Part shown: one piece after another, positions 1,459-23,741 of the stretch
Position numbering within the stretch: the first letter of the stretch is position 1
How the letters are laid out: each line of letters opens with the position of its first letter
DNA from: a bacterium
GTDB taxonomy: Bacteria > UBA8248
Length of the DNA stretch: 64,000 nt
Direction: 5' to 3'
Assembly: GCA_965207065.1 (NCBI GenBank)
Contig: OZ242260.1
Coordinates: forward strand, 1,792,001-1,856,000
The notes under the pieces: generated by a model
Database searches by the model: none
What the model saw: only the letters and a program-made list of their open reading frames with translations
Told to the model about the DNA's origin: nothing
Program-made: the position numbers and the translations under genes

Positions 1459-1568
1459 TTTTCACCCCGCATCGCTCGGGGGCGGATGAGCTAGGCCGCG
1501 CCGGTTCGCCGGCCGGACCCGGCGGCCTCAGGCTCTCCGCCCCGATGCGCGGGTTGAAGATTGTACGG

Positions 1569-1601
1569 AAAGGGCGGCTCGAAATGGGCCGCCCTTTTTT
1601 T
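1569..1601 (+). terminator. Rho-independent terminator
   Basis: AAAGGGCGGCTC-GAAAT-GGGCCGCCCTTT plus T-run. Confidence 0.8.
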
Positions 1602-1639
1602 GCGTGAACGCCGGGGGGGCGAAGGATCTCCCGCTATTC

Positions 1640-1962
1640 GGGGTTTTGAAAAAGACCTTATTTCATGATTCGGCGCATAGAGCCGACCGGGAAAAAGGAG
1701 ATTTCACTCCCCCCTTGAGGGGGAGTCGAAGAGCTGAGGGCGTAAGCCCGAAAGCGATTCGGTGGGGGGTATAACTCGGAGTGGCGATAAAACGCGATTC
1801 ACCCCCCACCGATTCAGCCTTCGCATAAACCGCTCGGCTTCATCGACTCCCCCTCAAGGGGGGAGTGGTTGGTTGGCGCTCTGCAAGGAAGAAGTAAAGT
1901 TTCATCCCTCCCTGGTCGGCTTCATGCTTGGAATCACGAAACCGGAACTTTTCAACAACCCC
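1640..1962. repeat. Composite palindromic MITE/REP-like element with ~65-nt imperfect inverted arms enclosing a 163-nt palindromic unit (1705-1867)
   Basis: Ends GGGGTTTTGAAAAAG / CTTTTCAACAACCCC; arms 1640-1704 and 1894-1962 are reverse-complement similar; inner unit bounded by CACTCCCCCCTTGAGGGGGAGTCGA and its inverse. Confidence 0.75.
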
Positions 1963-2131
1963 TCAAGGGGGGAGTAATTTTTCCCTCATCAGGCGCGTCA
2001 AGCCTTCGTTCATAGAGATTTATCAACAACACAATCACGGGACCTTTTCCGGGCGATGGACTTAAGCCTTCCTCTTCTTTATCATTTCCGCATCAAACAG
2101 ATATCGACTCCCCGCACCGGAGGATTCCCCC

Positions 2132-2854
2132 ATGACGGATTGGAAGAAAAAGCTCGGCTTCATCGTTCCATCCTGGAACACGGTGATGGAGTACGAATGC
2201 CAGCGCATGGCGCCTGAGGGCGTATCGGTCCACTTCACGCGCATCGCCCACACGGACGATGAGGAAGAAACCCTCCTGCACATGATAGAGGTGGTGCCCG
2301 AACTCGCCGATCTGCTCGGCCACGCGAGTCTCGACGCCATCTGCTTCGGCTGCACCGGCGGCAGCTTCGTGCGTCCGGGCATGGATGACGACATCATCGA
2401 GGTCATCCAGGAGCGAACCGGGGTTCCCGCCACCACGACCTCCACCGCTCTCACCGAGGCCATGCGCGAGATGGGCGTCGCCAGGGTGGCGCTCGCCTCC
2501 CCCTATCCCCAGTGGCTGAACGAGCGGCTCACGGTGTTCCTGAAAGAAAAGGGAATCGAGGTGGTGGCCGAGAGAGGCCAGAACGTCGAGTGCCCCGCCT
2601 TCCTGCCGCCCGAGAACTCGGAAGCTCTCGCGCGCGAGGTGGACTGCGCCGAGGCGGACGGCATCTTCATCAGCTGCACGAACTTCCGCTCGCTCGAATC
2701 GGTGGATGTACTCGAAGCCGCGCTTGGGAAACCTGTGCTCACGAGCAACACCACGGCCATGTGGCACACGCTACGGGTGGCGGGCTTCGAGGGAGAAGCC
2801 ACAGCAGGCGGCGCGCTCATGCGCGAGCATCTCGCACCCGCCCGGCGCGCGTAG
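2132..2854 (+). CDS. Maleate cis-trans isomerase / Asp-Glu racemase superfamily protein
   Basis: GFIVPSWNTVME start; two catalytic Cys motifs FGCTGGS and ISCTN; PVLTSN. Confidence 0.85.
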   Translation: MTDWKKKLGFIVPSWNTVMEYECQRMAPEGVSVHFTRIAHTDDEEETLLHMIEVVPELADLLGHASLDAICFGCTGGSFVRPGMDDDIIEVIQERTGVPATTTSTALTEAMREMGVARVALASPYPQWLNERLTVFLKEKGIEVVAERGQNVECPAFLPPENSEALAREVDCAEADGIFISCTNFRSLESVDVLEAALGKPVLTSNTTAMWHTLRVAGFEGEATAGGALMREHLAPARRA

Positions 2855-2861
2855 GTCTTTT

Positions 2862-4025
2862 ATGGACGAGGGGAGCCGCCGCGGCCAGCAGTGGGTGACC
2901 GAGGAGTTCTATAAGGTTCACGACGTCTACGCCTTCCGCTCGGTGATGTACGTGGAATGGGGCTTCCGGCCCGCCGACGTGAGGAGAACCACCGAGCGCA
3001 TCAAGACGCCAGGCTCCGTGCCCAAGGAGTGGGCGCGCACCGCCGCCCAGGAAGAAGCGCTCGCGAGAGAAGCCGAAGCCGCCGGCCACCGCGAATCGGC
3101 GGCGGAGTTCTACCACCGCGCAGCGCTTTATTACGGCCCCGCCTGCGGCGTCATCCACAAGAACACACCGCAGAAGCTCGAACTTTACGGAAAGATGATC
3201 GCCTGCTACGAGAAGTTCATCGAGCTTTTCGACGAGGCCCCCGTGGAGCGCGTGGAGATTCCCTTCGAGAACGGAAAGACGATTCCGGGCATTTTGCAGA
3301 CCGTGCCGGGGGTGGAGCGCGCGCCCTGCGTCATCATTGTACCGGGGATGGACACCATCAAGGAGTTTCTCCCCAATCCCTATCACAACCATTTCAGGCG
3401 GCGCGGCCTCGCCACGCTCAGCATCGACGGCCCCGGCCAGGGGGAGAGCAACACGCGCGAGACCTGGGTGACGCTGGACAACTTCGAGCGCGCGGGCTCG
3501 GCCGCCATCGACTATCTCGAATCACGCCCCGAGGTGGACGCCGAGCGAATTGGCCTCTACGGCTGGAGCATGGGCAGCTACTGGGGGCCGCGCGTGGCGG
3601 CGCACGATGCGCGCTTAAAGGCCTGCGTGGGCGCGATGGGCGTCTACCTCCAGAAGGACTCCATCTTCAAGAGCGGAAAGCCCGCCTACCGCGCGAACTA
3701 CAAGTACATGTCCGACACCTATGATGAGGACGCCTTCGACGCCATGGCCGGGCAGATGACGCTCGAGGGCGTCGCGGGTGACATCAAGTGTCCCACCCTG
3801 CTCGCGATGGGCGAGTTCGACGAGCTTTGTCCCTTGGAGGACGCCGAGCGGCTCTTCGACCTCCTGGGCGGCCCCAGGGAGCTTTGGGTGTATGAGAACG
3901 AAACCCACACGATGGGCGGACGCCTGCCCGATTTCTACCTCATGGTGGCCGACTGGCTCCGCGACGCCATAGACGGCAAGTTCAGTCCCGACCACGCCGT
4001 GCGCCGCTTCTTCGAGGCGCGCTGA
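2862..4025 (+). CDS. Alpha/beta hydrolase (FrsA/DUF1100, 2,6-dihydroxypseudooxynicotine hydrolase-like)
   Basis: PGMDTIKE, DGPGQGES, nucleophile elbow GWSMG, D and H candidates (EFDELC, ETH); start placed at ATG 7 nt after the upstream stop. Confidence 0.8.
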   Translation: MDEGSRRGQQWVTEEFYKVHDVYAFRSVMYVEWGFRPADVRRTTERIKTPGSVPKEWARTAAQEEALAREAEAAGHRESAAEFYHRAALYYGPACGVIHKNTPQKLELYGKMIACYEKFIELFDEAPVERVEIPFENGKTIPGILQTVPGVERAPCVIIVPGMDTIKEFLPNPYHNHFRRRGLATLSIDGPGQGESNTRETWVTLDNFERAGSAAIDYLESRPEVDAERIGLYGWSMGSYWGPRVAAHDARLKACVGAMGVYLQKDSIFKSGKPAYRANYKYMSDTYDEDAFDAMAGQMTLEGVAGDIKCPTLLAMGEFDELCPLEDAERLFDLLGGPRELWVYENETHTMGGRLPDFYLMVADWLRDAIDGKFSPDHAVRRFFEAR

Positions 4026-4181
4026 GGAGAATTTCATTCAGGGGTGGGTGCGAAAGGGTATCAACGGCTTTTAAGGATTGTCCCAAACCCCGCTTTTCCA
4101 TATCGCCTCGATGCCGTATTCTTGGGCCTTTGCGATTCCCATTTTTCCAAAACGTAACCTCATGTTCTGACGGAGAATTTC

Positions 4182-5210
4182 ATGAAAGCGGCTTTGCTTG
4201 AAAAAACGCGCGTGATGAGCGTGGGCGATCAGCCCGACCCCGGCCTGCCCGCCGACCACGCGCTGGTGCGGGTGGCCACGTCGGCCATCTGCGGCACGGA
4301 CGTATCCATCTGGGCCGGAAAAATGCCCGCGCGCATCCCCTTGATTCCCGGCCACGAGTGCACGGGCACGGTGGAGCAGGTCGGCGAGAGCGTCACGCGC
4401 CTGAAAGTGGGCGACCGGGTGGTGCTGAACCCGCTGTCGAGTTGCGGGACTTGTTTCTACTGCGTGCGCGGGCTGACGAACATCTGCCTGCACGGCGGAT
4501 TGAGAGGCCGCGAGGTGCCGGGCACTTTCGCCGAGTACATCGCCGTGCGAGAGACCGAAGCCTTCGCCTTTCCCGAGCAGGTGAGTTTCGCCGCGGCGAC
4601 GAACTTCGTGGGTCTTTACACGGTCGTCTACAGTCAGAGAAAAGCGCCTTATATCGCGGGTTCGCGCGTGGCCGTCCTGGGGCAGGGGAGCAGCGGCCTG
4701 CTCCATACGCAGTTGGCGAAAGTGTCGGGAGCGGCGTCCGTCATCGCCGTGACGAGGAGCAAGTGGAAGCTGGAGGTGGCGAAAGAGATGGGCGCGGATG
4801 AAATCGTGCCCGCGGGCGAGGTGGACCCCGTCGAAGCCGTGCGTGAGCTCACCGACGGCCTGGGGGCCGACATCGTCATCGAGACGGCGGGCGCCGCCGA
4901 GACCATGGTGCAGGCCTACGAGATGGTGCGGCCCGGCGGCGCGATTTTGCAGTTCGGCATCGGGCCCGCGCAGGTAGACGGAGTACCGGGCCAGGCCTAT
5001 TACTTCAAGGATCTGACCGTCATCGGCTCGCGCGCGGGCCTGCCGGAGGATTTCGAGAGCGCCATCCGCCTGGTGGCGACCGGGCAAATCGACCTCGAAC
5101 CCCTCGTCACCCACCATTTCGCGCTCGATGAGATTCAAAAAGGCTTCGAGTTCGTCGATGCGGGCGGAGACGGCGGCACACTCCGGGCGGTGATCGAGAT
5201 AGCGAACTGA
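4182..5210 (+). CDS. Zinc-dependent medium-chain alcohol dehydrogenase
   Basis: AICGTD, GHECTG, structural Zn CxxCxxC...C, Rossmann GQGSSG. Confidence 0.9.
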   Translation: MKAALLEKTRVMSVGDQPDPGLPADHALVRVATSAICGTDVSIWAGKMPARIPLIPGHECTGTVEQVGESVTRLKVGDRVVLNPLSSCGTCFYCVRGLTNICLHGGLRGREVPGTFAEYIAVRETEAFAFPEQVSFAAATNFVGLYTVVYSQRKAPYIAGSRVAVLGQGSSGLLHTQLAKVSGAASVIAVTRSKWKLEVAKEMGADEIVPAGEVDPVEAVRELTDGLGADIVIETAGAAETMVQAYEMVRPGGAILQFGIGPAQVDGVPGQAYYFKDLTVIGSRAGLPEDFESAIRLVATGQIDLEPLVTHHFALDEIQKGFEFVDAGGDGGTLRAVIEIAN

Positions 5211-5232
5211 CGCCCGCCAACTTGCGCGGGCG

Positions 5233-5423
5233 GGGTTGTTGAAAGAGCCCTCGCAGGGGGCGTCGCCTTTACCCCCGTGGCAAGGGGCCGGGGGGTTGGT
5301 TTGGTAGGGGCCGCATATCATGCGGCCCGTTCGGGGGCGGCGTGAAAAATCCGGGTCGCATGTATGTCAGACATATATGTCTGACCTGCAAACCCCCTCC
5401 TCGGGGGGCTTTTTCAACAACCC
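5233..5423. repeat. MITE-like element with 18-bp terminal inverted repeats enclosing GTAG-type REP palindromes
   Basis: GGGTTGTTGAAAGAGCCC (5233-5250) vs GGGCTTTTTCAACAACCC (5406-5423), 17/18 match; internal palindromes at 5304-5328 and 5362-5389. Confidence 0.7.
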
Positions 5424-5455
5424 TGCGCTTGGCTCCGGCGAACAAGGAGGTTGTC

Positions 5456-6328
5456 ATGTCTTTTGAGCACCCATACATTCGAATTGCCAACGTGACGCCC
5501 GAGAAACTGGACGAGAAAGAGGGCTGGAGCGTCTCCGATTTCCGGGTCGTCGTCAGCGGGAAGGAGGGTTCCTCCTCCATCATGTACCACGCCACCCTGG
5601 CCCCGGGTGATCGCCACCACAAGCACCGCTACGAGAACTGCCAGATGCAGTATTACGTCGTGAGCGGCCACGGCCTGGCGGGAGCCGGGGAGGACCGCGT
5701 GGAGGTGCACGCGGGCCACTTCCACCAGATTCCGAAGGGCGTGGAGCACTGGCTCGTGAACCTGGGCCGGCACGATCCCCTGGTCATCATCGGGTTCTAC
5801 GACCGCGTTCCCTATCTGAAGGACACCGGCCGCGTCTATCTCGGCGATATCACCGAGGCCGACCTCACCGCCCCGCGCACGCTGAGCGCCGCCGCCCTGC
5901 AGCATCCCCTCGTGCACAACGACGAGGTTCCCCACGTCAAGGTGTCGCACGAGGAGGGTTGGACGCAGGATTACTTCAACGAGCCGCTCAACCGCAGCGT
6001 CGGGGCGGGCTCGTGCTGGATGCAGGGCTACTTCGGCCCCAAAACCGTGCACATGAAGCACCGCCACAACAACTGCGAGGAAATATGCTACATCTTGAAG
6101 GGCCGCGGCCTGGCCGGAATCGGGAAAGATCGCGGGGAAGTGTTCGCAGGCGACGTGAACTACATGCCCGCCGGGGTGGAGCACTGGCTCGCGAACATCA
6201 GCGATACCGAAGACCTCTCGGCTCCCGGCTGGTACATCGGGGTGGGCGGACTGGATGAGAGCGGTTTTGAATACTTGGGCCCCGTGACGGATGAAGACCT
6301 GAAACAGCGAACGGGCGCTATCGAATAG
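5456..6328 (+). CDS. Bicupin (two cupin domains) protein, paralog 1
   Basis: Two repeats with H-x-K-H-R-(Y/H)-x-N-C-(Q/E) and P-x-G-V-E-H-W motifs; AAGGAGG RBS before ATG 5456. Confidence 0.8.
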   Translation: MSFEHPYIRIANVTPEKLDEKEGWSVSDFRVVVSGKEGSSSIMYHATLAPGDRHHKHRYENCQMQYYVVSGHGLAGAGEDRVEVHAGHFHQIPKGVEHWLVNLGRHDPLVIIGFYDRVPYLKDTGRVYLGDITEADLTAPRTLSAAALQHPLVHNDEVPHVKVSHEEGWTQDYFNEPLNRSVGAGSCWMQGYFGPKTVHMKHRHNNCEEICYILKGRGLAGIGKDRGEVFAGDVNYMPAGVEHWLANISDTEDLSAPGWYIGVGGLDESGFEYLGPVTDEDLKQRTGAIE

Positions 6329-6368
6329 ATCTTCCCTGTAGAACAACCATTTTGTGAGGAACTTGTCT

Positions 6369-7226
6369 ATGCCGCTTCAATACCCCCTGATCCACGTCGA
6401 CGACGTTACGCCCGAGAAGATGGAAGAAAAGGAAGGCTGGGCGATCTCGGAGTTCCGTCTGCCCATCACAGGCGCGCACGGGAGCTCGACGACCGTCTTT
6501 CACTCCATCTTCCGGCCTGGCTCCACCCACGCGAAGCATCTCCATACCGAGTGCGAGGAAATCGCGGTCTATTTGAAGGGCCACGGCGTAGTCGGCCAGG
6601 GCGACCAACGCGCCGAGGTGCGCGAGGGCCACTGCCGCCTCATGCCGAAGGGGTCGACGCATTTCTTCTACAACGAGACGAAAGACGAGGAGGCGATGGT
6701 GGTCGGCTTCTACCTCGGCGCGCCGAGCGTGGCGGGCACGGGCTATGAGTTCCACGGCGACGTGACCCGGGCCGACCTCGACATGCCGCGCGAGGGGCTG
6801 ACCGAGGGAATCCTGGTGCACCTCGACGACGTGCAGCCCGAGAACATGAACGAGGGGGAGGGCTGGTCGATCACCGACTTCAGGCTCCCTCTGTGTGGGC
6901 GCAACGGCAGCGACACGACGCTGTTCCGCGCGCGCTTTTTCCCGGGCGCGGTTCACAAGAAGCACAGGCACGACAACTGCGAGGAGATCTACTACATCAT
7001 CAGCGGCCACGGCCTGGCGGGCGCGGGGCCGGATCGCGTGGAGGTGCGCGGCGGTCACTTCCACTACATCCCCAAAGGGGTGGAGCACTGGCTCCACAAC
7101 CTGAGCGACACCGAGCCCATCGAGGCGGTGGGCATCTACATCGGCAGCGGGAGCGTGGAGGAGACGGGCTACGTCTACATGGGCGACGTGACCGAAGAGG
7201 ACATCAAGGCGCGGACGCCGCTGTAG
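6369..7226 (+). CDS. Bicupin protein, paralog 2
   Basis: HAKHLHTECEE and HKKHRHDNCEE cupin motif 1; PKGSTHF and PKGVEHW motif 2; GAGGA RBS. Confidence 0.8.
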   Translation: MPLQYPLIHVDDVTPEKMEEKEGWAISEFRLPITGAHGSSTTVFHSIFRPGSTHAKHLHTECEEIAVYLKGHGVVGQGDQRAEVREGHCRLMPKGSTHFFYNETKDEEAMVVGFYLGAPSVAGTGYEFHGDVTRADLDMPREGLTEGILVHLDDVQPENMNEGEGWSITDFRLPLCGRNGSDTTLFRARFFPGAVHKKHRHDNCEEIYYIISGHGLAGAGPDRVEVRGGHFHYIPKGVEHWLHNLSDTEPIEAVGIYIGSGSVEETGYVYMGDVTEEDIKARTPL

Positions 7227-7374
7227 CCGATTATGGGTGCTCTCAAGGCCCGGCGGAATATGGGATTCGTGCGCCATGTGTTTTATCTTTTGCCTTTTGC
7301 GCACGTCGTGGTATTCTTGAGGGGCATGGGGAATTGGCGCATATATACGAGACAAATCTTTCGGGAGTGATGTC

Positions 7375-7923
7375 ATGAAGATAACCGAGGCGGCAGCCGA
7401 TAAAGTCAAGGAAATCATGGAGCAAAACGGTGGAGGCTTCGCCGGAATCCTCATCAGCTTCGAGGGCGGCTACAAGCTCGATCTGGTGAAGGATGAGGAT
7501 GCGGCCGAATACATCCGGGTGGAGAACCCCCTGCTGGGCGTTTTCGCCTCGCCCGAGCATGTCGACAGAGCTGAGAAGGCCCAGATCGAGTTCGTGACCG
7601 AAGGCCCCACGAGCGGGTTCAAGGTGACGCGCGAGATGACGGAGGGCGATACGTCCCTCCTGGAGCAGATTCAGGAGATCATCGACACGGAGATTAACCC
7701 GGCGGTGGCTTCCCACGGCGGCGTCATCAACCTGCTCGACGTGGAGGAAAAGCGCGTGTTCGTGCAGATGGGCGGCGGCTGCGCGGGCTGCGGCATGGCG
7801 GACGTGACGCTCAAGTCAGGCGTCGAGGCGCGCTTACAGCAATTAGACCCCGAGATTCAGGTGATCGACACCACCGACCACGCCTCGGGTGCGAACCCCT
7901 ACTACGCGCCGACGAAAAAATAG
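7375..7923 (+). CDS. nfuA: NfuA-like Fe-S cluster carrier (degenerate A-type N-domain plus NifU C-domain)
   Basis: MKITEAAADKVK start; EINPAVASHGG and GGGCAGCG (CxxC); DTTDHASGANPYY C-terminus. Confidence 0.8.
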   Translation: MKITEAAADKVKEIMEQNGGGFAGILISFEGGYKLDLVKDEDAAEYIRVENPLLGVFASPEHVDRAEKAQIEFVTEGPTSGFKVTREMTEGDTSLLEQIQEIIDTEINPAVASHGGVINLLDVEEKRVFVQMGGGCAGCGMADVTLKSGVEARLQQLDPEIQVIDTTDHASGANPYYAPTKK

Positions 7924-7977: not shown

Positions 7978-9231
7978 TTATTCCCCGATATCGAAGCGGA
8001 GTTTCTCATGCGCCGCGCGCAGGGCGGCTTCCACCTCTTCGGGCCGCTCTCCTTTTGCGAAGATGAAGCCCAGATATCTCTCTCCCTCTGGCAGCGGTAC
8101 GACGCGCCCGCCGATGTGGATGGAAATGTCGACCTCCACGACGCCGGGTACGGTCAGAGCTTCGTCTTTGCCCTCGACCCCCTTCAGCACCCCCTCACCG
8201 GGTATGGGAATCATCATGACGCCGGAAGCCTTTTTCTCACGCTCCATGGATGGAGGCGCTACGCCGAGGGCCTGGGAAAGGATGAGGCATTCGAGCGAGG
8301 CGCCGCCCCCGAACTCGAGTGCGCCCGAGCATTTCCCGCCAATGGAGCGGCTCGCCACGTCGATCACCCGTATTTCGCCCGCATCGTTGATTCTCAGTTC
8401 CGCGTGAAGTGGCCCCTCGCGCAGGCGGATGGCGCGGGCGGCGCGGGTGGTTTCCTCACGAATACGATTTTGCGTCTCATCGGGCAGCCGAGAGGGCGTG
8501 ACGTAGATGGTTTCCTCGAAAAAAGGGCCTTCCAGCGGGTCGGGCTTGTCGAAAATCGCGAGAATGTGCACCTCACCACGCACGACGAGGCCTTCGACCG
8601 CCACCTCTATGCCCTCCAGGTAATCCTCCACCAGGATCATCTCCGCCTCGGCGCCGCCGCGGGCGATGGTTTCTGGATCTTCGAGTATCGCGCCGACCCG
8701 GCGGTAGGCATCTGCGAATTCGGCCTCGTCGTTCGCGCGAATCACGCCCCGGCTGGCGGCGAGAAAGGTGGGTTTCAAAACACAGGGGTAGCGGATGCCC
8801 TCTGCGATTATCTCCGGCTCCTCCTGGGCGGAGACGAGGCGGAACGAGGGCGAAGGCAGGCCTTCTTCCGAGAGGACTTTTCTCAGTTCGTACTTGCTCC
8901 GCGTCGTGCGCGAGGCTTCCACGGGATGGTAGGGCAGCCCCAGCGCCTCGGCGGCCATCGCGCCGAGGATGAGCGTGTCGTCATCCACCGGTGCTATCGC
9001 GTCGAGCGGGAACTGACTTGCGAACGAACTGATGAGGGCGGCGCCCGCTTCCGGTTCGTTGTAATCGAGCGTGATGGAGCCGCCCGGGTTCAGCCCGGCC
9101 AGAAGGTCGGGCCGGTCGGTTCCCACTGTGACCCGGACGCCCATCTCCTGAGCCGCCGCCATGTAGGCGGACGCGCGGTAGGTGGCCGTCGTCATCAACA
9201 GGAGAACGCGCTCTCCTTCTTCAGGTGGCAT
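7978..9231 (-). CDS. ATP-grasp domain protein
   Basis: SKYELR, PCVLKP...ASRGV, LVEDYLEGIEVAVEG, HAELR, IDVASRSIGG; start uncertain (9231 or 9243). Confidence 0.8.
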   Translation of the reverse strand: MPPEEGERVLLLMTTATYRASAYMAAAQEMGVRVTVGTDRPDLLAGLNPGGSITLDYNEPEAGAALISSFASQFPLDAIAPVDDDTLILGAMAAEALGLPYHPVEASRTTRSKYELRKVLSEEGLPSPSFRLVSAQEEPEIIAEGIRYPCVLKPTFLAASRGVIRANDEAEFADAYRRVGAILEDPETIARGGAEAEMILVEDYLEGIEVAVEGLVVRGEVHILAIFDKPDPLEGPFFEETIYVTPSRLPDETQNRIREETTRAARAIRLREGPLHAELRINDAGEIRVIDVASRSIGGKCSGALEFGGGASLECLILSQALGVAPPSMEREKKASGVMMIPIPGEGVLKGVEGKDEALTVPGVVEVDISIHIGGRVVPLPEGERYLGFIFAKGERPEEVEAALRAAHEKLRFDIGE

Positions 9232-10000
9232 ACCACCCGCCATCCACCAGGAGCGATGTGCCGGTCACGAGGCTGCTCGCCTCGGAAGCCAGGAAGATGG
9301 CCGGCCCCACCAGTTCGCTCATCTGCCCGAAGCGGCCCATGGGCGTTCTGTCGCAGATGGCGTCGTAGATGAGTTCGTCTTCCTGCAGGGAGGCGGTGAG
9401 TTCCGTTTCGATGAAGGTGGGACAGATGGCGTTCACCTGGATGTTGTCTGTCGCATACTCGCGAGCGAAAACACGCGTCAGGCCGATGAGGCCGCTCTTC
9501 GAGGACGTATAAGGCCCGTAGCACTGTTGCCGGGGGTTCCGGAATACGGACCAGCCCATCAAAGATGAGATGTTGATCACCTTGCCGCCGCCCGATTTCT
9601 TCATTTCCTCGCCCGCGCGCCGCGTGATGAAGAAGATGCTCTTCAGGTTCAGGTCGAGGATCCTGTCCCAGTCCGCCTCGCTGATGTCCCAGAGCGTTTT
9701 CCGCACGTTCGTGCCCGCGTTGTTCACCAGAATGGTGAGGCCGCCCAGTGCTGCGGCGGCTTCTATCACCATGCGCTCGGCCGATTCCATGTTGGTCACG
9801 TCGGCCTGGATGAGCGCGCACTTGCGGCCCATGCCCTCGATGGCTTCCTTCGCCTCGCCGGCGGGTTCGATGTCGATGTCCGCGATGGCGACGTCAGCAC
9901 CCGCGGCGGCGAAGCCCTCGGCCAGCGTACGTCCGATGCCGCGCGCAGCGCCTGTAATGAGCGCCTTCGCGCCGCTCAGGTCGAAAAGAGATTGACTCAT
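9221..10000 (-). CDS. Short-chain dehydrogenase/reductase (gluconate 5-dehydrogenase-like)
   Basis: TGAARGIG, NNAG, YTSSK (YxxxK), VDGG; AAGGAG RBS. Confidence 0.9.
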   Translation of the reverse strand: MSQSLFDLSGAKALITGAARGIGRTLAEGFAAAGADVAIADIDIEPAGEAKEAIEGMGRKCALIQADVTNMESAERMVIEAAAALGGLTILVNNAGTNVRKTLWDISEADWDRILDLNLKSIFFITRRAGEEMKKSGGGKVINISSLMGWSVFRNPRQQCYGPYTSSKSGLIGLTRVFAREYATDNIQVNAICPTFIETELTASLQEDELIYDAICDRTPMGRFGQMSELVGPAIFLASEASSLVTGTSLLVDGGWYAT

Positions 10001-10186: not shown

Positions 10187-11836
10187 ATGGCTAAGTCCAA
10201 GGATAACGGCGCGAAAAAAGAGCGCCCCGTCCGGGAGGCGGCCTACAACTCGGGCAAGCCCGTGCCCGTGGTCTACGGGCCGGACGCGCCGGATGAGGGA
10301 TATCGGGAAAAGCTCGGCGCGCCGGGAGAATACCCCTACACCCGGGGCATCTACCCCACGATGTACCGGGGCTCGCTCTGGACGATGCGCCAGTACGCGG
10401 GTTTTTCCACCTCGGCGGACACCAACGCGCGGTTCCATTTTCTGCTCGGAAACGGCCAGACGGGCCTCTCGATGGCCTACGATCTGCCCACCCAGCTCGG
10501 CCTCGACTCGGACGACGAGACCGCACAGGACGACGTGGGACGCCTGGGCGTCGCCGTGGACACCGCTCAGGACATGGCGGACGTTTTCGAGGGGATACCG
10601 CTCGATAAGGTGAGTGTCTCGCACACCATCAATTCGACCGCCGCCATCATCCAGGCGTTCTGGCTCATCGCCGCAGAGCGCCAGGGGGTCGCGCTCGATA
10701 AGCTGCGCGGCACCTTCCAGAACGACATGCTCAAGGAGTACATCGGCCGGGGCACTTGGATATTCCCCCCGAGACCCTCCATGCGCCTGGTGGCCGACAT
10801 CATCGAATACAACGCGAAGCACTGCCCGCGCGTGAACGCCGTCAGCGTCTCGGCCACCCACATCGCCGAGACGGGCGCCACCCTCGCGCAGGACGTCGCC
10901 TTCCCCATCCTGAACGCTCTGGCCTATATACGAGAGCTCACCTCGCGCGGCCTCCACGTGGATGACTTCGTGCCCACGATGTCGTTTCACCTCTCGGTCG
11001 GCGGCGGCGTGGGGCCGTTCAATCTGCTTGAATCTATCGGCAAGCTGCGCGCGGCGCGGCGCATCTGGGCGCGCACGATGAAGGAGAAATACGGCGCGAA
11101 AAACCCGAAAACCATGCAGCTCAAGTTCTCGACCGGCAACTGCGGCAGCCGCATGGCGGCGCGCGAGCCGCTCAACAACATCGTGCGCCAGACGCTCTAC
11201 ACCCTGGCCGCTGTCATGGGGGGCACACGCTCAGTGAACATGGCGTGTTTCGACGAGGCTTTTGAGATTCCCTCGGACGAGTCCATCCGCACGGCGCTTC
11301 GGATTCAGCAGGTCATCGCCCATGAGAGCGGCGTGGCCGACACGGTGGATCCGCTGGCGGGGGGCTATGCGGTGGAAGCCGTGACGGATCAGGTGGAAGA
11401 GGAGATTCACGCCATCGTAGACGATTACGAATCACGCGGCGGAATCGTCCCCTTCATCGAGAGCGGCGAGATCCAGAGACTGCTCGCGCGGCAGGCTTAT
11501 GAGCATCAGCGAAAGATCGCCGATGGCGAGCAGGTGTGGGTGGGTGTGAACAAGTTCACCTCGGAAGAGGAAGACCGCATGAGCGCGGGTGAGGGCCTCT
11601 ACGAGGCGGATGATTCGGCGCTCGAAAAACAAAAAGAGCGCCTCGCGCGCGTGAAGGCCGCCCGCGATGAAGGCGAGGTGGCTGCGCAACTCGAAAAGCT
11701 GGCCAGGGCGTGTGAATCGAAAGAAAATCTGGTGCCTTATCTCATGGAGTCCGCTCGCGCGCGCCTCACCGTGGGGGAGATGACCGGGGTGATGCGCGGC
11801 GCCTTCGGGGCCTACGTGGAGCCGTCGGTCGTTTGA
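10187..11836 (+). CDS. B12-dependent acyl-CoA mutase, large (substrate-binding) subunit, methylmalonyl-CoA mutase family
   Basis: GEYPYTRG, WTMRQYAGF, GLSMAYDLPTQLGLDSD, QNDMLKE, DEA, DPLAGG, VGVNKF. Confidence 0.92.
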   Translation: MAKSKDNGAKKERPVREAAYNSGKPVPVVYGPDAPDEGYREKLGAPGEYPYTRGIYPTMYRGSLWTMRQYAGFSTSADTNARFHFLLGNGQTGLSMAYDLPTQLGLDSDDETAQDDVGRLGVAVDTAQDMADVFEGIPLDKVSVSHTINSTAAIIQAFWLIAAERQGVALDKLRGTFQNDMLKEYIGRGTWIFPPRPSMRLVADIIEYNAKHCPRVNAVSVSATHIAETGATLAQDVAFPILNALAYIRELTSRGLHVDDFVPTMSFHLSVGGGVGPFNLLESIGKLRAARRIWARTMKEKYGAKNPKTMQLKFSTGNCGSRMAAREPLNNIVRQTLYTLAAVMGGTRSVNMACFDEAFEIPSDESIRTALRIQQVIAHESGVADTVDPLAGGYAVEAVTDQVEEEIHAIVDDYESRGGIVPFIESGEIQRLLARQAYEHQRKIADGEQVWVGVNKFTSEEEDRMSAGEGLYEADDSALEKQKERLARVKAARDEGEVAAQLEKLARACESKENLVPYLMESARARLTVGEMTGVMRGAFGAYVEPSVV

Positions 11837-12249
11837 TGATGAGCACGAATAAACGCATACGGGTCCTGATGGCGAAGCCGGGCCTCGACGGGCATGATCG
11901 GGGCGTCAAGGTCATCATCCATGCGCTGAGAGACGCCGGCATGGAGGTGATTTATTCGGGTCTCAGGCAAACGGTGGAGCAGATTATCGCCGTAGCGATT
12001 CAGGAGAACGTGGACGTCATCGGCCTGAGCATACTCTCGGGCTCCTACATGGGGATTGCGCGCAGGCTCATGGCGAGAATCAAGGAAGAGGGCCTCGATG
12101 ATTGCCTCGTCATCTTTGGCGGGAATATCCTGGAGCGCGACGTGGCGGGGCTCAAATCCTTGGGCGTTGCCGAAGTCTTCAATCACCATGCGGACATGAC
12201 GGAAGTCGTCTCGTATATCCGTAACAACGCAGCAGCCGGCGCGGCCTGA
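11836..12249 (+). CDS. Cobalamin-binding small subunit of acyl-CoA mutase
   Basis: AKPGLDGHDRG (DxHxxG), GLSILSG, GGNI; TGATG overlap with the large subunit. Confidence 0.92.
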   Translation: MMSTNKRIRVLMAKPGLDGHDRGVKVIIHALRDAGMEVIYSGLRQTVEQIIAVAIQENVDVIGLSILSGSYMGIARRLMARIKEEGLDDCLVIFGGNILERDVAGLKSLGVAEVFNHHADMTEVVSYIRNNAAAGAA

Positions 12250-12265: not shown

Positions 12266-13474
12266 GTGGGGGAATCAGTTTTGGAAAAGCCGCTGGAGGG
12301 CGTGCGCATACTCGATCTTTCCGCCCTGCTCGCAGGCCCTTACGGCAGCATGGTGCTGGCCGATCTGGGTGCGGACGTCATCAAGATAGAAGTACCGGGC
12401 CGGGGCGACCTGGTCCGGACGATGCCCCCCCACTACGTGGGCGAGACGAGCGCCTATTTCATCGCGCTCAACAGGAACAAGCGGGGCATTTTCCTGAACC
12501 TGAAGGACGAGGAGGGCTACCGCGTCTTCTGCGAGATGGTGAAACGCTCCGACGTGGTCTATGACAATTACCGCCCTGGCGTTTTGGAGCGGCTGGGCGC
12601 GGACTACGAAACGCTTAAAGTAGTGAATCCGCGCATCATCAGCGCCTCCGTCACCGGCTACGGACTCACCGGCCCCCAGAAAGACAAGCCCGCGCTCGAC
12701 CTCATCATCCAGGGGCGCGGCGGCATCATGAGCTTCACAGGCGAGCCGGGCAGGCCGCCCGTGCGCCTCGGCGTTCCCATGGGCGACATGGGAGGCGGCA
12801 TGTTCGCCGCCCACGGGATTCTGGCGGCGCTCTATAAGCGCGAGCGGACGGGCGTGGGCCAGAAGGTGGATGTCTCGCTCTTGGATTCCCAGTTGTATCT
12901 CGCAAGCTATCGTTCGCAGTACTATCTGACGGCGGGCGACGTGGCCGAGCCAATGGGCACGGGCCACGCATCCGCCGTTCCCATCGGCGCGTACCAGTGC
13001 GGCGACGGCAAGTGGCTTGTGCTCGACGCCATTCTGGATCATTTCTTCCAGGGCCTTTGCGACGCGCTGGGTCATCCTGAATGGAAGGACGACCCCAGGA
13101 TGAAGGACAGGCCCACCCGCCTCGAGAATCGCGAGTACGTGGACGGCAAGCTCTCGGAAGTCTACAAGACGAACACCGCCGCCCACTGGATAGAGAGAAT
13201 CGAGGCGCACGGCGTTCCCTGCGGGCCAATCCAGAGCATCGAGGAGGCGCTGAACGACCCCCAGACGCGCTCGCGAGAGATGGTGGTGGAGATGACCCAC
13301 CCTGAACTCGGCGAGATGCGCACGTTCAACACGCCCATCAAGATGGAGGGCACCTGGGGCGCTGCTCCCTCGCCGCCTCCCCTGATGGGCGAGCACACCG
13401 AGGAAGTGCTCAAGGAAGTGCTCGATCTAAACGATGAGGAAATCGAAAGGCTGAAAGCGCGCGAGGCGATTTAA
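12266..13474 (+). CDS. Family III CoA-transferase (CaiB/BaiF)
   Basis: PLEGVRILDLS, LAGPY, DLGADVIKIE, NRNKRGI, catalytic Asp region MGDMGGG, PPLMGEHT. Confidence 0.92.
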   Translation: MGESVLEKPLEGVRILDLSALLAGPYGSMVLADLGADVIKIEVPGRGDLVRTMPPHYVGETSAYFIALNRNKRGIFLNLKDEEGYRVFCEMVKRSDVVYDNYRPGVLERLGADYETLKVVNPRIISASVTGYGLTGPQKDKPALDLIIQGRGGIMSFTGEPGRPPVRLGVPMGDMGGGMFAAHGILAALYKRERTGVGQKVDVSLLDSQLYLASYRSQYYLTAGDVAEPMGTGHASAVPIGAYQCGDGKWLVLDAILDHFFQGLCDALGHPEWKDDPRMKDRPTRLENREYVDGKLSEVYKTNTAAHWIERIEAHGVPCGPIQSIEEALNDPQTRSREMVVEMTHPELGEMRTFNTPIKMEGTWGAAPSPPPLMGEHTEEVLKEVLDLNDEEIERLKAREAI

Positions 13475-13483: not shown

Positions 13484-14272
13484 ATGTTTCATGACAAGAA
13501 GGCTTTCGTGTTCGACCTGGAAGGAGTCTTCTTCGCCGGAGACGAGGTGATGCCCGGCGGACAGGAGTTGATGCGGGCCATCAAGTCGAGAAACCTCCCC
13601 CATCGCTTCATCACGAACATCAGCCGCAGCACGGCGGCGGAAATCCGCGCCCACATGGCGGGTATTGGACTCGACCCGGGGGAGAACCTCATCGTGGCCG
13701 CGCTGGATCGGGTCGGCTCGTTTTTGAGGAAGAATTTCGGGCCGGGCCGCGCCTACGTGTTGGGGACGGATTCGCTTAAACGTGCGGTCGCATCGGGCGG
13801 TTTCGAGATATTGGGGAATGACGAAGAAGATAAGGCCGACGTCGTGCTTGTCGGTCTGGACGAAGACCTCACCTATCAGACTTTGAGCGCCGCAGCGCGG
13901 GCGGTGAGCCGGGGAGCGCAATTCGTCGCCATGAACCCCGACGTGCGGTTGCCGAGCGAGGATGGCTCTTTCTCCCTCGGCGGAGGCGCCATCATGGCGT
14001 CGGTTCGGGCGGCGGCGGGACGTGAGCCGGTGTTTTTCGGAAAGCCCGAACCTTTTCTCTTTGAAGAGGCGCTCGCTGAACTGGGCGTGGATGCGCGCCA
14101 CGCCGTCATGGTGGGGGACAACTTGAGAACGGATATTGCGGGCGGCCGGAAGGTGGGCATGGCCACCGTGTGGGTGAACCGCTGGGGGGTGATTGCCGGG
14201 GATCCGGACGTCACGGCGGACCTCGAAGTCAATACACTCGACGAACTGATGCCGCATCTGCCCGGCGGCTAA
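13484..14272 (+). CDS. HAD-superfamily class IIA hydrolase (NagD-like)
   Basis: FDLEGV (motif I), ITN, GKPEP, MVGDNLRTDI. Confidence 0.85.
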   Translation: MFHDKKAFVFDLEGVFFAGDEVMPGGQELMRAIKSRNLPHRFITNISRSTAAEIRAHMAGIGLDPGENLIVAALDRVGSFLRKNFGPGRAYVLGTDSLKRAVASGGFEILGNDEEDKADVVLVGLDEDLTYQTLSAAARAVSRGAQFVAMNPDVRLPSEDGSFSLGGGAIMASVRAAAGREPVFFGKPEPFLFEEALAELGVDARHAVMVGDNLRTDIAGGRKVGMATVWVNRWGVIAGDPDVTADLEVNTLDELMPHLPGG

Positions 14273-14295: not shown

Positions 14296-15051
14296 ATGGC
14301 GCTGGTTGAATATGAGGTGAGAGACAAGCTGGCCTATATCAAATTGAACAGGCCGGAGAAGATGAACGCGATCAACCACGAGATGAGCGAACGCATCTTC
14401 GCGCTCTTCGACGAGATGGAGCGCGACCCAAATGTGTGGGGTTGTCTGATAACCGGCGAGGGCAAGGCCTTCTCGAGTGGACACGACCTCACCGAGCCGC
14501 CGCCCGAAGACAGGGAGGTGAAACCCGTTTCCGACCTCTATCAGGTCATCATGGAGCTTTTTAAGCCCTGCTTCGCGGCGATCAACGGGTTCTGTCTGGC
14601 GGGCGGGGCAGGCATCGCGCTCTCCTGCGACGTGCGCGTCATGGCCGAGGACACGCAACTCGGCTGGCCCCAGGTGATGCGCGGCATCTCTTCCGTCAGC
14701 GGGCCGATTCTCCTGGCGAAGCAGCTGCCCTTCAACCTCGCCCACTACCATCTGTTCACCGGCGAGCCCATCGACGCTGAAACCGCGCTCAGGCTCGGTC
14801 TCGTGAACAAGGTGGTTCCCCGGGCGAACGTGCTGGAGGAAACGGAGAAAATTGCGCGGCAGGTGCTGGCGAACGCGCCCCTGGCGGTGCGCGCCATCAA
14901 GGAGATCACCGTTCGCGCGCGCGACATGACGATGGAAGACGCCCTTCGATTCGGCGACGTGATCCTGAAACGCCTCCTGGAGACCGATGACGCAGAAGAG
15001 GGCGTGCGCGCCTTCAAGGAGAAAAGAACGCCTCGTTTCAAGGGGAAATAA
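14296..15051 (+). CDS. Crotonase (enoyl-CoA hydratase/isomerase) superfamily protein
   Basis: LNRPEKMNAI, AFSSGHDL, AAINGFCLAGG, EGVRAFKEKRTPRFKG; GAGAGGA RBS. Confidence 0.9.
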   Translation: MALVEYEVRDKLAYIKLNRPEKMNAINHEMSERIFALFDEMERDPNVWGCLITGEGKAFSSGHDLTEPPPEDREVKPVSDLYQVIMELFKPCFAAINGFCLAGGAGIALSCDVRVMAEDTQLGWPQVMRGISSVSGPILLAKQLPFNLAHYHLFTGEPIDAETALRLGLVNKVVPRANVLEETEKIARQVLANAPLAVRAIKEITVRARDMTMEDALRFGDVILKRLLETDDAEEGVRAFKEKRTPRFKGK

Positions 15052-15100: not shown

Positions 15101-16261
15101 GTGGACTTCGACCTCACCGACTCTCAACGGGAAATCCGGCAAAAAGCCCGCGAAATCGCTACGAACCAGATAGCACCCAAGGCGGCGTTCTGGGACCAGA
15201 CCGAGGAATATCCCTGGGAAAACGCTCGAATTCTCGCGGATGAAGGATTTATGGGCATGAACATCCCCGAGGAATTCGGCGGACCCGAGCGCCCGCTCAT
15301 CGAGGCCGTCCTGGTGGTCGAGGAGATGGCCAAGGTCTGCGGCATCACGGGGCGCATCGTGGTGGACAGCAATATGGGCGTGGTGGGGGCCATCATTAAA
15401 TACGGCACCGAGGAGCAGAAGAATAAGTATCTGCCCATGGTGCTCCAGGGGGATAAGCCCGCCATCGTCATCACCGAGCCCGAGGCGGGAAGCGCCGCCA
15501 CAGACATGACGACGCGGGCCGTGCTCGACGGCGATGAATATATCCTGAACGGCAAGAAGAAATGGATCACCGGCGCGGGCGTCTCCCACATCAACCTCGT
15601 ATTCGCCCGCGTAGTGCACGGCGGGGACGAGCAGGGAATCGGCGCGCTTATCGTGGAGTTGGGCGCGGAGGGCTTCCGCATCGGGGAACGCGCCTTCATG
15701 ATGGGCTTGCGGGGCATCCCCGAGAGTGAGGAGATTTTCGAGAACTGCCGCGTGCCGAGTGAAAACCTGGTGACGGTAGGCTTCGGTCGCCTGATGGCCG
15801 CCTACAACGCCCAGCGGGTGGGGGCAGGCACGGTGGCCTTGGGCCTCGCCGAGGGCGCCTTCGCGCAGGCGGTGGAATACGCGAAAAAACGCCACCAGTT
15901 CGGACGCCCGATATCGGAGTTCCAGGGGCTTCAGTGGATTCTGGCGGATGGACGCATTCAGCTCGACGCCGCGCGGCTCCTGCTCCACCGTGCGGCGGTG
16001 CAGGAAGACCCGAAGACGGGATTTCCCGACATGAACCTCGCCGCCATCGCCAAGACGTTTTCGGCCGAAGCCTCGATCAAGGTGACGAATGACGCGCTCC
16101 AGATTTTCGGGGCCGCCGGCTATTCGCGCGATCTGCCGATCGAGCGCATGGCGCGCGACGTGCGGATGTTCACCATCGGCGGCGGCACCACCCAGGCGCA
16201 ACGAAACGTGATCGCCTCGGGTATTTTCGGGAGAAAATTTTCGCAGCGCAGAGGAGAGTGA
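15101..16261 (+). CDS. Acyl-CoA dehydrogenase-fold protein, 3-sulfinopropanoyl-CoA desulfinase (AcdA)-like
   Basis: ACAD motifs TEPEAGS, QFGRPISEFQGLQW; AcdA-type segments YPWEN, GRIVVDSN, GDKPAI, MGLRGIPE, YNAQRVGAG, RMFTIGGGT; no catalytic Glu; GGAGG RBS with GTG start. Confidence 0.8.
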   Translation: MDFDLTDSQREIRQKAREIATNQIAPKAAFWDQTEEYPWENARILADEGFMGMNIPEEFGGPERPLIEAVLVVEEMAKVCGITGRIVVDSNMGVVGAIIKYGTEEQKNKYLPMVLQGDKPAIVITEPEAGSAATDMTTRAVLDGDEYILNGKKKWITGAGVSHINLVFARVVHGGDEQGIGALIVELGAEGFRIGERAFMMGLRGIPESEEIFENCRVPSENLVTVGFGRLMAAYNAQRVGAGTVALGLAEGAFAQAVEYAKKRHQFGRPISEFQGLQWILADGRIQLDAARLLLHRAAVQEDPKTGFPDMNLAAIAKTFSAEASIKVTNDALQIFGAAGYSRDLPIERMARDVRMFTIGGGTTQAQRNVIASGIFGRKFSQRRGE

Positions 16262-16380
16262 GAAAATCCTGCTCTAAGGATGGCTTCTCATAAAAGCGTC
16301 CCATGTCCGCTTGGAATATTGGGGCCGGAATATCCCGGGAAGGAGTAGTTAAACCCAGGCCGTATGATAAAGGAACCATA

Positions 16381-16722
16381 ATGGCTATCTTTACGCTTCA
16401 GGAAGCCCGCGATTTGCTGCCGCAGGTCAAGGAAGTGACGCAGCATTATTACGACGTCGTCGAGGAGATGCGCGAACAATTGGAAAACATCGAGGAGTCA
16501 CAAGACGTAAAGCGCCTCGAAGGACTCATGAATGACGCGGTCGGCGAGTGGGTCGAGGCCGTCAGAAACTTAGGGGTTGAAGTCAAAGGGTTGTGGCTGG
16601 CGGATTTCGATTCGGGAGACGGCTATTACTACTGCTGGAAGCTCGGCGAGGAAGACATCGAACATTTTCACAGCTACGATGGTGGGTTCGCCGGCCGCCG
16701 TCCCATTTCGTTGCTGGAATAA
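16381..16722 (+). CDS. DUF2203-like protein
   Basis: FTLQEARDLLP start, coiled coil, VEVKGLWLADF, YYCWKLGE, GFAGRRPI. Confidence 0.75.
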   Translation: MAIFTLQEARDLLPQVKEVTQHYYDVVEEMREQLENIEESQDVKRLEGLMNDAVGEWVEAVRNLGVEVKGLWLADFDSGDGYYYCWKLGEEDIEHFHSYDGGFAGRRPISLLE

Positions 16723-20478: not shown

Positions 20479-21543
20479 TTATGGGGATGTTTCGGTTTCC
20501 TCATCCTTCGCGGCGCCCTCCCAAAGATCCCGCTGGACCCCTTTGGGCAGCGCGACACCCAGATGCGAATACGCCGCCGATGGCGCGCGCCTGCCGCCGC
20601 GCGTTCTCTGTACGAAGCCCGCCCGCAGCAGGAATGGCTCCACCATGTCCACCAGGGTGTCCGTCTCCTCGTTCATGGTGGCGGCGATGGCCTCCACCCC
20701 CACCGGGCCGCCGCCGTATTGATCGATGATCGTTCTCAGATATTTCCTGTCCAGCGCGTCCAGACCCAACTCGTCCACGCCTTCCATGGCGAGCGCTTCG
20801 CGCGCACTGGTGAGGGTGATGGCGTCATCCCCACGCGCCTGGCAGAAATCGCGCGTCCAGAGCAGGAGGCGGTTCGCCGTGCGCGGCGTGCCCCGGCTTC
20901 TTCGTGCGAGTTCGTGTGCCGCCTCTTCTTCAATCGGAACTTCGAGACGAACGGCGCTCCGCAGGAGTATCTGCACGAGTTCTTCCTCGGAGTAAAAATC
21001 CACGTGGTAGACGAGATAGAAGCGTTCTCTCAGAGCGGCGGTCAGGGCGCCGGGGCGCGTCGTGGCGCCCACGGCCGTGAATATCTTGAGCGGGAAATTG
21101 ATGGTGCGGGCCATGGGTCCGCTATCGACGACGAAGTCCACGCGGTAGTCCTCCATCGCGGGGTAGAGGAATTCCTCCACCGCGCTGGGCATGCGGTGGA
21201 TCTCGTCGATGAACAGCACGTCTCCCTGCTGGAGGCCCGTGAGTATTCCCATGAGGTCGGCCGGTCTGGAGAGAGAAGGGCCGGAGGTCTTGACGAGGCG
21301 CGTTCCCATTTCCTCCGAGATGATGTGCGAAAGCGTGGTTTTCCCGAGACCCGGCGGCCCGTGGAAGAGAATGTGGCCCAGGGGCTCGTTTCTTCTGCGC
21401 GAGGCCTCGAGCGCAATGCGCAGTTTCGCCACCAGGTCGGTCTGGCCCACGTATTCTTCAAGCTGCGTGGGCCTCAGCGAGGTGAAGGTTCGCTCTTCCG
21501 CCGGGCTCGCCGCCTTCGCGCTCACGCGCCGCTCGATGACCAT
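20479..21543 (-). CDS. ruvB: Holliday junction branch migration helicase RuvB
   Basis: LRP..LEEYVGQ, GPPGLGKTTL, FIDEIHR, GATTR, RGTPR, RTRGGR. Confidence 0.97.
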   Translation of the reverse strand: MVIERRVSAKAASPAEERTFTSLRPTQLEEYVGQTDLVAKLRIALEASRRRNEPLGHILFHGPPGLGKTTLSHIISEEMGTRLVKTSGPSLSRPADLMGILTGLQQGDVLFIDEIHRMPSAVEEFLYPAMEDYRVDFVVDSGPMARTINFPLKIFTAVGATTRPGALTAALRERFYLVYHVDFYSEEELVQILLRSAVRLEVPIEEEAAHELARRSRGTPRTANRLLLWTRDFCQARGDDAITLTSAREALAMEGVDELGLDALDRKYLRTIIDQYGGGPVGVEAIAATMNEETDTLVDMVEPFLLRAGFVQRTRGGRRAPSAAYSHLGVALPKGVQRDLWEGAAKDEETETSP

Positions 21544-21553
21544 GGTTTTCTCC

Positions 21554-22719: not shown

Positions 22720-22750
22720 AAGAAAACCCCACGGGCGGTGGGTTGTGCGT

Positions 22751-23500: not shown

Positions 23501-23741
23501 GACGGGTACTCCTGCGATTCTCCTGCGGTGGGTTCTATCCCTCTCCATCCGAAGGGCATTCGTCCTCATGAGGCATTCTGACTATAATTTCTAGCATGGG
23601 GGGCGGTGGGAGTAAAGACTTGGGCCTGCCGGGTCCGGCCTCGAAGCGCCCCGCATGGACACCTCGTTGATGGGGTGATATTTTTCCGCCAGACGTTTCC
23701 AGGGAGGAAGGATTCTGAGTTCTCGAAAAACAGCAACTTCG

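Follow-up and report, generated by a model that had tools for sequence, protein, structure and literature searches.

What does a cobalamin-dependent acyl-CoA mutase act on when it has kept the residues that hold an acid group and replaced much of the rest of its substrate pocket? The question is raised by a gene at 10187..11836 (+) in the stretch of DNA analyzed here (64,000 nt, positions 1,792,001 to 1,856,000 of contig OZ242260.1, assembly GCA_965207065.1, GTDB lineage UBA8248; referred to below as the window). The gene encodes the large (substrate-binding, TIM-barrel) subunit, 549 aa, of a split adenosylcobalamin (AdoCbl)-dependent acyl-CoA mutase. It matches PF01642 over its whole length (582.6 bits, cut-off 22.1) as well as TIGR00641 (591 bits, cut-off 303.8). 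Its score against the methylmalonyl-CoA mutase (MCM) equivalog NF006944 is under the cut-off (510.2 vs. 876 bits), which is weak evidence because that model was built on fused enzymes and is out of a split subunit's reach. The B12-binding small subunit follows at 11836..12249 (+; ~137 aa; PF02310 76.9 bits, TIGR00640 130.2 bits). Read at the junction, its ATG and the large subunit's TGA stop share a single base; the open reading frame (ORF) as listed begins at TTG 11833. It contains GLDGHDRG, matching DxHxxG, the cobalamin-binding histidine motif.

The data agree with the prediction that the two subunits together are an active AdoCbl-dependent mutase whose acyl-CoA substrate has a free acid group and would be supplied by a dicarboxylate-type CoA-transferase. 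The large subunit belongs to a distinct, uncharacterized branch of the B12-dependent acyl-CoA mutases. At five positions invariant in canonical enzymes the residues are smaller or different, and the loop at 364–367 has been rebuilt along the lines of ethylmalonyl-CoA mutase (ECM), which is why the substrate is judged more likely not to be methylmalonyl-CoA itself. The sequences suggest instead a substituted malonyl- or succinyl-CoA, probably of the ethylmalonyl/methylsuccinyl type or another substituted succinyl-CoA; the chance that this is right is put at about even.

Residues of the substrate pocket

Residues were placed by HMMER pairwise alignment to the MCM of Propionibacterium (1REQ_A), gap-free over the relevant blocks (residue number is chain index + 1). 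A preliminary description of the locus, drawn up from the sequence by comparison with the Propionibacterium enzyme, had listed four retained residues and four altered motifs; the alignment with characterized mutases reproduces its numbering in full and bears out both sets. Retained are Y89 (Y70 of the query, in RQYAGF), Q197 (Q178), R207 (R188, in KEYIGR), and H244 (H225). SISGYH has become SVSATH (G242A, Y243T) and LSFF has become MSFH (F287H), while HSQTSG reads STGNCG (H328S, S329T, Q330G, T331N, S332C) and SLHTNS reads SVNMAC (L363V, H364N, T365M, N366A, S367C). Beyond these, R283 is replaced by T, E370 is retained, and a five-residue insertion, GGGVG, follows the MSFH strand. In MCM, Y89, R207, H244, and Q197 are first-shell residues that bind the substrate, and Y243 and E370 also have roles in the active site. 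Measured against MCM, then, the target has the carboxylate clamp (Y89/R207 with H244 and Q197) but not the canonical pocket, with T, H, S-T-G-N, and N-M-A at 243, 287, 328–331, and 364–366.

With Tyr at 89 and Arg at 207, the target cannot be of the isobutyryl-type (F/Q) or the 2-hydroxyisobutyryl-type (I/Q) signature, against which the preliminary description had also argued. Both signatures are seen in other paralogues, the F-Q-Q ones in other genomes. The target scores 269 bits against the isobutyryl-CoA mutase/IcmF model NF045497, for which the cut-off is 1500.

The top solved relative is the 2-hydroxyisobutyryl-CoA mutase (HCM) HcmAB of Aquincola tertiaricarbonis (4R3U; 458.5 bits, 41% identity, template modeling (TM) score 0.86), which has the same split architecture. 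It differs in having Ile/Gln in place of the target's Tyr/Arg, and in retaining GYH, F287, H-x-Q-T, and H-T-N, all lost in the target. Human MCM retains the same motifs in this alignment, so they are common to enzymes with differing small substrates. With MCM itself (MutB 1REQ/4REQ, human MMUT 2XIQ, and split forms) the target shares the fold, the Pfam/TIGR domain, and Y89/Q197/R207/H244/E370. The separate B12-binding subunit is a likeness to the split forms in particular. The sister clade described below also has epimerase and carboxyltransferase neighbors in common with MCM. Identity is 35–37% to solved fused MCMs and 45–51% to split MCMs, and the target's clade differs further in its family III CoA-transferase partner, the insertion after strand 6, and the lack of an adjacent MeaB. 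An AlphaFold model of the large subunit (22 sequences; pTM 0.81, mean pLDDT 74.4) superposes on 4R3U, 2XIQ, and 4REQ with TM of about 0.85–0.86, and the changed residues fall in or just after the predicted barrel strands at 219–222, 265–271, 314–318, and 349–351.

ECM is the most informative comparison for the loops. In two Streptomyces genomes (loci L399 and L400), a mutase gene is found immediately after that for crotonyl-CoA carboxylase/reductase (ccr; TIGR01751, 629.6 bits); in the second genome a CitE-like lyase and an acyl-CoA dehydrogenase (ACAD) come next. Gene order and the TIGR01751 match identify this mutase as ECM, ccr-meaA being an operon. It retains Y89, Q197, R207, Y243, H244, F287, E370, and Q330, but reads GVQVN at the HSQTS position and QLPA at the HTNS position. 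The same two loops are remodeled in the target, to STGNC at 328–332 and NMAC at 364–367 (NLPC in the sister clade), and ECM and the clade alike have a small residue in place of H328, an amide in place of H364, L or M at 365, and P or A at 366. With only ~34–35% identity between the Streptomyces ECM and the target, below that of canonical split MCMs, the likeness is parallel rather than inherited. ECM thus records an established switch of substituent, ethyl in place of methyl, in just the two loops that are rebuilt in the target. The ECM substrate is a 2-alkylmalonyl-CoA and requires an epimerase. ECM differs in being fused to its B12 domain (682 aa), and neither the GVQVN/QLPA signatures in the clade nor a ccr gene near the target was found. 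Another motif group, “RN IAGGG ALCC,” had first been taken for ECM; this was dropped, as the ccr-linked Streptomyces gene has a different signature. A plasmid search with P0138 gave only matches below 60% identity.

A clade with a conserved, remodeled pocket

When the target was aligned with its 120 best homologues (53–96% identity), all 121 sequences carried T243, H287, S328, T329, G330, N364, C367, and E370, and 120 carried H244. Position 366 is A, P, or G, and the loops read STG(N/G/A)x and N(M/L)(A/P)C. As a control, 73 loci of at least 6 kb were taken from 80 named-genome loci (79 of them with canonical MCM) belonging to many phyla of bacteria and archaea. The canonical pocket is intact in 72 of these 73 split MCMs, with Y243, H328, and Q330 in 100% and F287 and H364 in 99%. 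The two sets have different fixed residues at thirteen columns, among them Y243T, F287H, H328S, Q330G, and H364N. The remodeling is a conserved feature of the clade, more than chance.

In a library clustered at 50% identity the clade is a single representative, P0028 (661 bits), and the runner-up, with 46% identity, reaches 501 bits. Of the cluster representatives, the nearest 150 include 126 with every scored position present, and 74 of these keep both Y89 and R207, 33 with a canonical pocket and 41 with a remodeled one. The T243/H287/G330 combination is found in just one of the 126.

Of the 51 species genomes of the window's phylum, 28 encode an orthologue with 71% identity or more. The phylum of a Desulfobulbus metagenome-assembled genome (MAG) was sampled evenly; by motif, 12 of its 401 sampled genomes have a clade member. 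Named members across ten 90%-identity clusters are all from MAGs. A quick maximum-likelihood tree places the own-phylum clade as sister to the other, Desulfobacterota-type, clade; in the latter, members linked to an epimerase form two separate sub-clades around one that has only the transferase. Own-phylum members share additional fixed changes in the pocket region (G187 beside R188, V216, a GV insertion, and R322). A homology search against solved structures gave none within the clade, and no characterized member was found; a search of the available papers on the clade and on the roles of these residues found nothing relevant. Among the NCBIfam equivalogs none separates mutase subtypes (13 representatives), and a protein atlas lookup of the target returned generic mutase clusters only.

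The target is one of four mutase large subunits in its genome. One of the others is a canonical MCM (YQR GYH QF HSQTA HTNS). This subunit (G000:C1:2120575-2122107; loci L001 and L309) stands alone between RNase Y/YmdB and alanyl-tRNA synthetase, and the top-scoring small subunit (2874288-2874680) is ~750 kb away. The second paralogue is an HCM-like I-Q-Q mutase clustered with genes for MeaB, an AMP-forming ligase, and a B12 subunit of its own (L003; the cluster is at G000:C1:2613848-2618321, loci L003, L311, L321, and L324). The third is non-canonical (YQR GAH RY GVVCG FTCA; G000:C1:3007369-3008904, loci L002 and L310); it adjoins a crotonase and an aldehyde:ferredoxin oxidoreductase, has no adjacent B12 subunit, and is of a motif type that recurs in genomes G403, G392, and G416. 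Elsewhere the genome has two MeaB genes, of which one adjoins the HCM-like paralogue. Its small subunits number three in all, and there is a single carboxyltransferase, together with an epimerase-like gene slightly below the cut-off (112.7 bits).

Co-occurrence with a canonical-pocket MCM is the rule: it was found in 11 of 13 genomes checked, namely the source genome and 10 of 12 Desulfobacterota-type genomes with a clade member. In two (G368 and G440), the canonical MCM is flanked by its own epimerase, a fumarase, and a malic enzyme. Several Desulfobacterota-type genomes (G285, G416, G119, G392, G161, and G368) have 11 to 13 mutase-domain matches each, and their pocket signatures are many and distinct (for example AYH..HTQTG AVCS, GFH..TAHCG CNPP, GII..TGTVG LQPA, and SYH..PSGNA), most of them lacking a characterized counterpart.

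Gene partners and the likely substrate

The gene after the two subunits, at 12266..13474 (+), encodes a family III CoA-transferase of 402 aa (SUGCT/YfdE-like; PF02515, 440.5 bits), with succinate-hydroxymethylglutarate CoA-transferase (SUGCT) as its top solved relative (9BR7, 288 bits). SUGCT is a succinyl-CoA:dicarboxylate transferase. How general this and other partners are was assessed on clade loci from genomes (20) and metagenomes (at least 80). A length of 6 kb or more was reached by 55 of the 100 loci; 53 of these had a match of at least 50% identity, and 52 of those carried the motifs. ORFs were called by script and partners scored by tblastn (at least 30% identity and 60% coverage); the counts are descriptive, with no significance test, since related loci are not independent.

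The CoA-transferase is present at 32 of the 52 clade loci (10 of 11 from the window's own phylum and 22 of the 41 others), compared to one of 73 canonical MCM loci. The small subunit is adjacent at 47 of 52 (11/11 and 36/41) and was scored at 27 of 73 canonical loci, a number that depends on likeness to the window's small subunit. MeaB was found at none of the clade loci (0/11 and 0/41) and at 20 of 73 canonical ones. The remaining partners separate the two halves of the clade, none of them being found at the 11 own-phylum loci: methylmalonyl-CoA epimerase (25 of the 41 others; 43 of 73 canonical loci), MmdA-like carboxyltransferase (15/41; 28/73), ScpC-like succinate CoA-transferase (10/41; 4/73), and a Na+-decarboxylase beta subunit (5/41, or 8 by clustering; 14/73). 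The NCBIfam basis was TIGR03081 for the epimerase (132.7 bits, cut-off 114.95), NF053853 for the ScpC type (564 bits, cut-off 500), TIGR03458 (688 bits, cut-off 658.7), TIGR01109 (226 bits, cut-off 190.6), and TIGR01117 (768 bits, under its cut-off of 998.8). A further neighbor cluster (“c26”) was rejected as an antisense shadow of the ScpC-like gene. Own-phylum loci have a different shared set, with a zinc-dependent alcohol dehydrogenase (Zn-ADH), a NifU-like protein, an ATP-grasp enzyme, and a short-chain dehydrogenase/reductase (SDR) on one side and the mutase, CoA-transferase, and a HAD phosphatase on the other. Within the window's genus only, a crotonase and a desulfinase-like gene join this set. 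Two clade members are without the CoA-transferase (L145 and L146, in G119 and G080). There the next gene encodes a ~970–980 aa FAD-linked oxidase/Fe-S/CCG fusion, and an aldehyde:ferredoxin oxidoreductase, a ThiS-like protein, and a 3-hydroxyisobutyrate-dehydrogenase-like gene lie upstream.

From the family, the likely chemistry can be sketched. The small subunit would bind B12, and the adenosyl radical would abstract a hydrogen from the CoA thioester. The free carboxylate of the substrate would be held by Tyr70 and Arg188 (Y89/R207) and the thioester carbonyl by His225 (H244), while the COSCoA group would move to the neighboring carbon, so that a succinyl-type ester and one of 2-substituted-malonyl type are interconverted. 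The acid itself would be loaded onto CoA by the adjacent SUGCT-like transferase, probably from succinyl-CoA. A published pairing of a mutase with a family III transferase is that of the phenylsuccinyl-CoA mutase IaaGH with IaaL in the iaa operon of Aromatoleum aromaticum, acting on phenylsuccinyl-CoA (PMC8360864). The likeness comprises a mutase for a substituted succinyl-CoA, a family III CoA-transferase, and an unusual ACAD without the YEG glutamate (PMC8360864). The likeness is one of described gene content, and the window has no other iaa-type genes. The E. coli operon sbm-argK-scpB-scpC, which converts succinate to propionate, also combines a mutase with a succinate CoA-transferase and a decarboxylating step. 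The sister-clade clusters resemble it in their ScpC-type transferases; the target locus differs in that its transferase is of family III, its crotonase is hydratase-like, and there is no MeaB/ArgK.

A substituted malonyl- or succinyl-CoA is favored by the retained clamp, thioester His, Q197, and E370 together with the GLDGHDRG of the small subunit; by the CoA-transferase, which is near-exclusive to the clade, and the regular co-occurrence of canonical MCM; and by the own-phylum operons, which lack epimerase and carboxyltransferase and have extra fixed pocket changes. Several observations weigh against it. The epimerase is as common in the sister clade as in canonical loci, and sister-clade loci with the MmdA-like carboxyltransferase, ScpC-type transferase, and Na+-decarboxylase beta subunit are clusters of methylmalonyl-pathway type, with the partners that a genuine succinyl-CoA/methylmalonyl-CoA mutase would need. 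ECM, the model for the loops, keeps Y243, F287, and Q330, which the clade has lost. His287 and Ser328 could represent relocation of the same side chain and not a change of substrate. In the model, pLDDT is below 50 in the loops at 320–326 and 353–361 that follow the remodeled motifs, and pocket geometry is not readable there. Finally, canonical MCM was not found in G427 (all four matches examined, one a fragment) or among 8 of the 12 matches examined in G119.

The main alternative, quite possible if still short of probable, is that this is a second lineage of MCM, divergent but isofunctional, with a re-packed pocket in which, for example, the His of position 328 has moved to 287. Such an enzyme would work with a family III CoA-transferase of succinate/propionate type, and no adjacent MeaB, in succinate–propionate conversions; in the window's genus, carbon derived from propionyl-CoA would be recycled to succinyl-CoA, the CoA donor of the transferase. 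The substrate-binding first-shell residues Y89, R207, H244, and Q197 are all intact, G427 shows no canonical MCM, and the desulfinase-like neighbor in the window would yield propionyl-CoA. Clusters with ScpC-like, mutL, mutS, Na+-pump beta, MmdA-like, and epimerase genes mirror the succinate decarboxylation pathway, and epimerase linkage in two separate sub-clades also fits. However, the canonical pocket is so uniform, in split MCMs, the human and Propionibacterium enzymes, and even HCM structures, that an isofunctional enzyme with five invariant positions changed would be unprecedented among the sequences examined. Most of the genomes checked also have a canonical MCM, with an epimerase of its own in G368 and G440, and the own-phylum operons have neither epimerase nor carboxyltransferase. 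Both of these would equally be required by 2-alkylmalonyl-CoA homologues, as in the ccr-ecm operon, and the sister-clade context is therefore indecisive. The preliminary description had proposed an anionic substrate differing in size or geometry from methylmalonyl-CoA. The anion is the natural reading of the clamp; the difference from methylmalonyl-CoA is backed by the invariance of the clade, the co-occurring MCM, the CoA-transferase, and the ECM loops, but finds no support in the Desulfobacterota-type neighborhoods, which suit methylmalonyl-CoA equally with a 2-alkyl homologue.

Two further explanations seem much less plausible. The clamp of the window's own sub-clade might bind an anion other than a carboxylate, with a sulfinate analogue of succinyl-CoA (of 3-sulfinopropionyl-CoA type) being rearranged and the mutase, SUGCT-like transferase, and desulfinase-like ACAD belonging to an undescribed organosulfur pathway. 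Succinate-type enzymes handle 3-sulfinopropionate as an analogue of succinate, and three genes downstream is an ACAD-fold gene at 15101..16261 (+) that is far nearer to 3-sulfinopropionyl-CoA desulfinase (5AF7, 423.8 bits) than to the runner-up structure, a dehydrogenase (282.7 bits). Its product, which scores 548.9 bits against NF042439 (cut-off 600), retains R84 and Q246, and has GGG where the YEG motif with the catalytic Glu (the catalytic base) would be expected; the AGG/YEG motif is described in PMC8360864. It is a candidate desulfinase, by sequence, of an uncultured lineage. A Variovorax proteomics paper (PMC6370202) mentions 3-sulfinopropionyl-CoA and desulfinase together with CoA-transferase. 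As a neighbor of the mutase, the desulfinase-like gene is confined to the window's genus (L157, L158, and L256 among the 11 own-phylum loci) and is absent from the rest of the clade neighborhoods; a desulfinase removes sulfinate without rearrangement, leaving the mutase with no obvious role; and such a substrate has no known precedent. It is thus considered very improbable. More doubtful still, barely worth entertaining, is a catalytically dead or regulatory paralogue. Y243, Q330, and N366, invariant in canonical enzymes, have indeed been lost, but the new residues are invariant in their turn, in both phyla, at 53–57% overall identity, Y89, R207, H244, Q197, and E370 are retained, and the B12 subunit, with its His motif, is translationally coupled and adjacent at 47 of 52 clade loci.

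Surrounding genes and wider meaning

The co-directional genes downstream of the mutase subunits are separated by gaps of 9 to 50 bases. The CoA-transferase is followed by a HAD-IIA family phosphatase of 262 aa at 13484..14272 (+; TIGR01460, 142.9 bits, above cut-off), found directly after the transferase at nine relatives' loci; outside the window's own phylum its linkage to the mutase is not conserved. At 14296..15051 (+) is a crotonase-family enoyl-CoA hydratase (PF00378, 180.8 bits), whose top solved relative is 3-hydroxypropionyl-CoA dehydratase (5ZAI, 158 bits) and which has only 31% identity to the crotonases of the sister clade. It was considered as a ScpB-like methylmalonyl-CoA decarboxylase and rejected, since its nearest solved relatives are hydratases; no methylmalonyl-CoA decarboxylase is among its 57 matches at E ≤ 1e-25. 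The desulfinase-like gene comes next, and a DUF2203 protein at 16303..16722 (+; PF09969, 88 bits) is the final co-directional gene of the array.

On the other side, divergently transcribed, are the SDR oxidoreductase at 9221..10000 (–; PF13561, 204.7 bits), beside the mutase in nine of the 11 own-phylum loci, and the ATP-grasp enzyme at 7978..9243 (–; PF13535 121.7 bits, PF18603 64.9 bits), which is L-amino-acid-ligase-like and conserved together with the SDR in the phylum. Upstream of the operon, the region 238–7923 has an HMGL-like enzyme (238–1458), an arylmalonate-decarboxylase/Asp-Glu-racemase family protein (2132–2854), an alpha/beta hydrolase, a Zn-ADH, two bicupins (5342–6328 and 6354–7226), and a NifU-like protein. 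These genes and the mutase operon may form one catabolic island. Downstream, the catabolic region is bounded by housekeeping genes, with RuvB, RuvA, RuvC, and a YebC/TACO1-family gene consecutive at 20479–23569 (–). An Rfam scan of the window detected no cobalamin riboswitch upstream of the operon; its only match was a transfer-messenger RNA gene (RF00023, 170.5 bits) at 36047–36407 (+).

The known specificities of B12-dependent acyl-CoA mutases are just a handful (methylmalonyl, ethylmalonyl, isobutyryl/pivalyl, 2-hydroxyisobutyryl, and phenylsuccinyl), and each one characterized has opened a pathway or a biocatalytic route. Interest in the present clade is tempered because remodeled Tyr/Arg clades are common (the 41 of 74 representatives noted above), and this is one of many branches of the family still unexplored. 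It is nevertheless a clean test case, with the acid clamp kept and five residues changed that are otherwise invariant from archaea to human. In the improbable event of a sulfinate substrate, it would be the first acyl-CoA mutase with a hetero-anionic substrate. If it proves to be an MCM after all, then Y243, Q330, H328, and H364 are dispensable for MCM chemistry and the reading of the active site changes. If the substrate differs, there would be a new rearrangement in anaerobic dicarboxylate metabolism, in a clade whose genes in anaerobes adjoin those of sodium-pumping decarboxylases.

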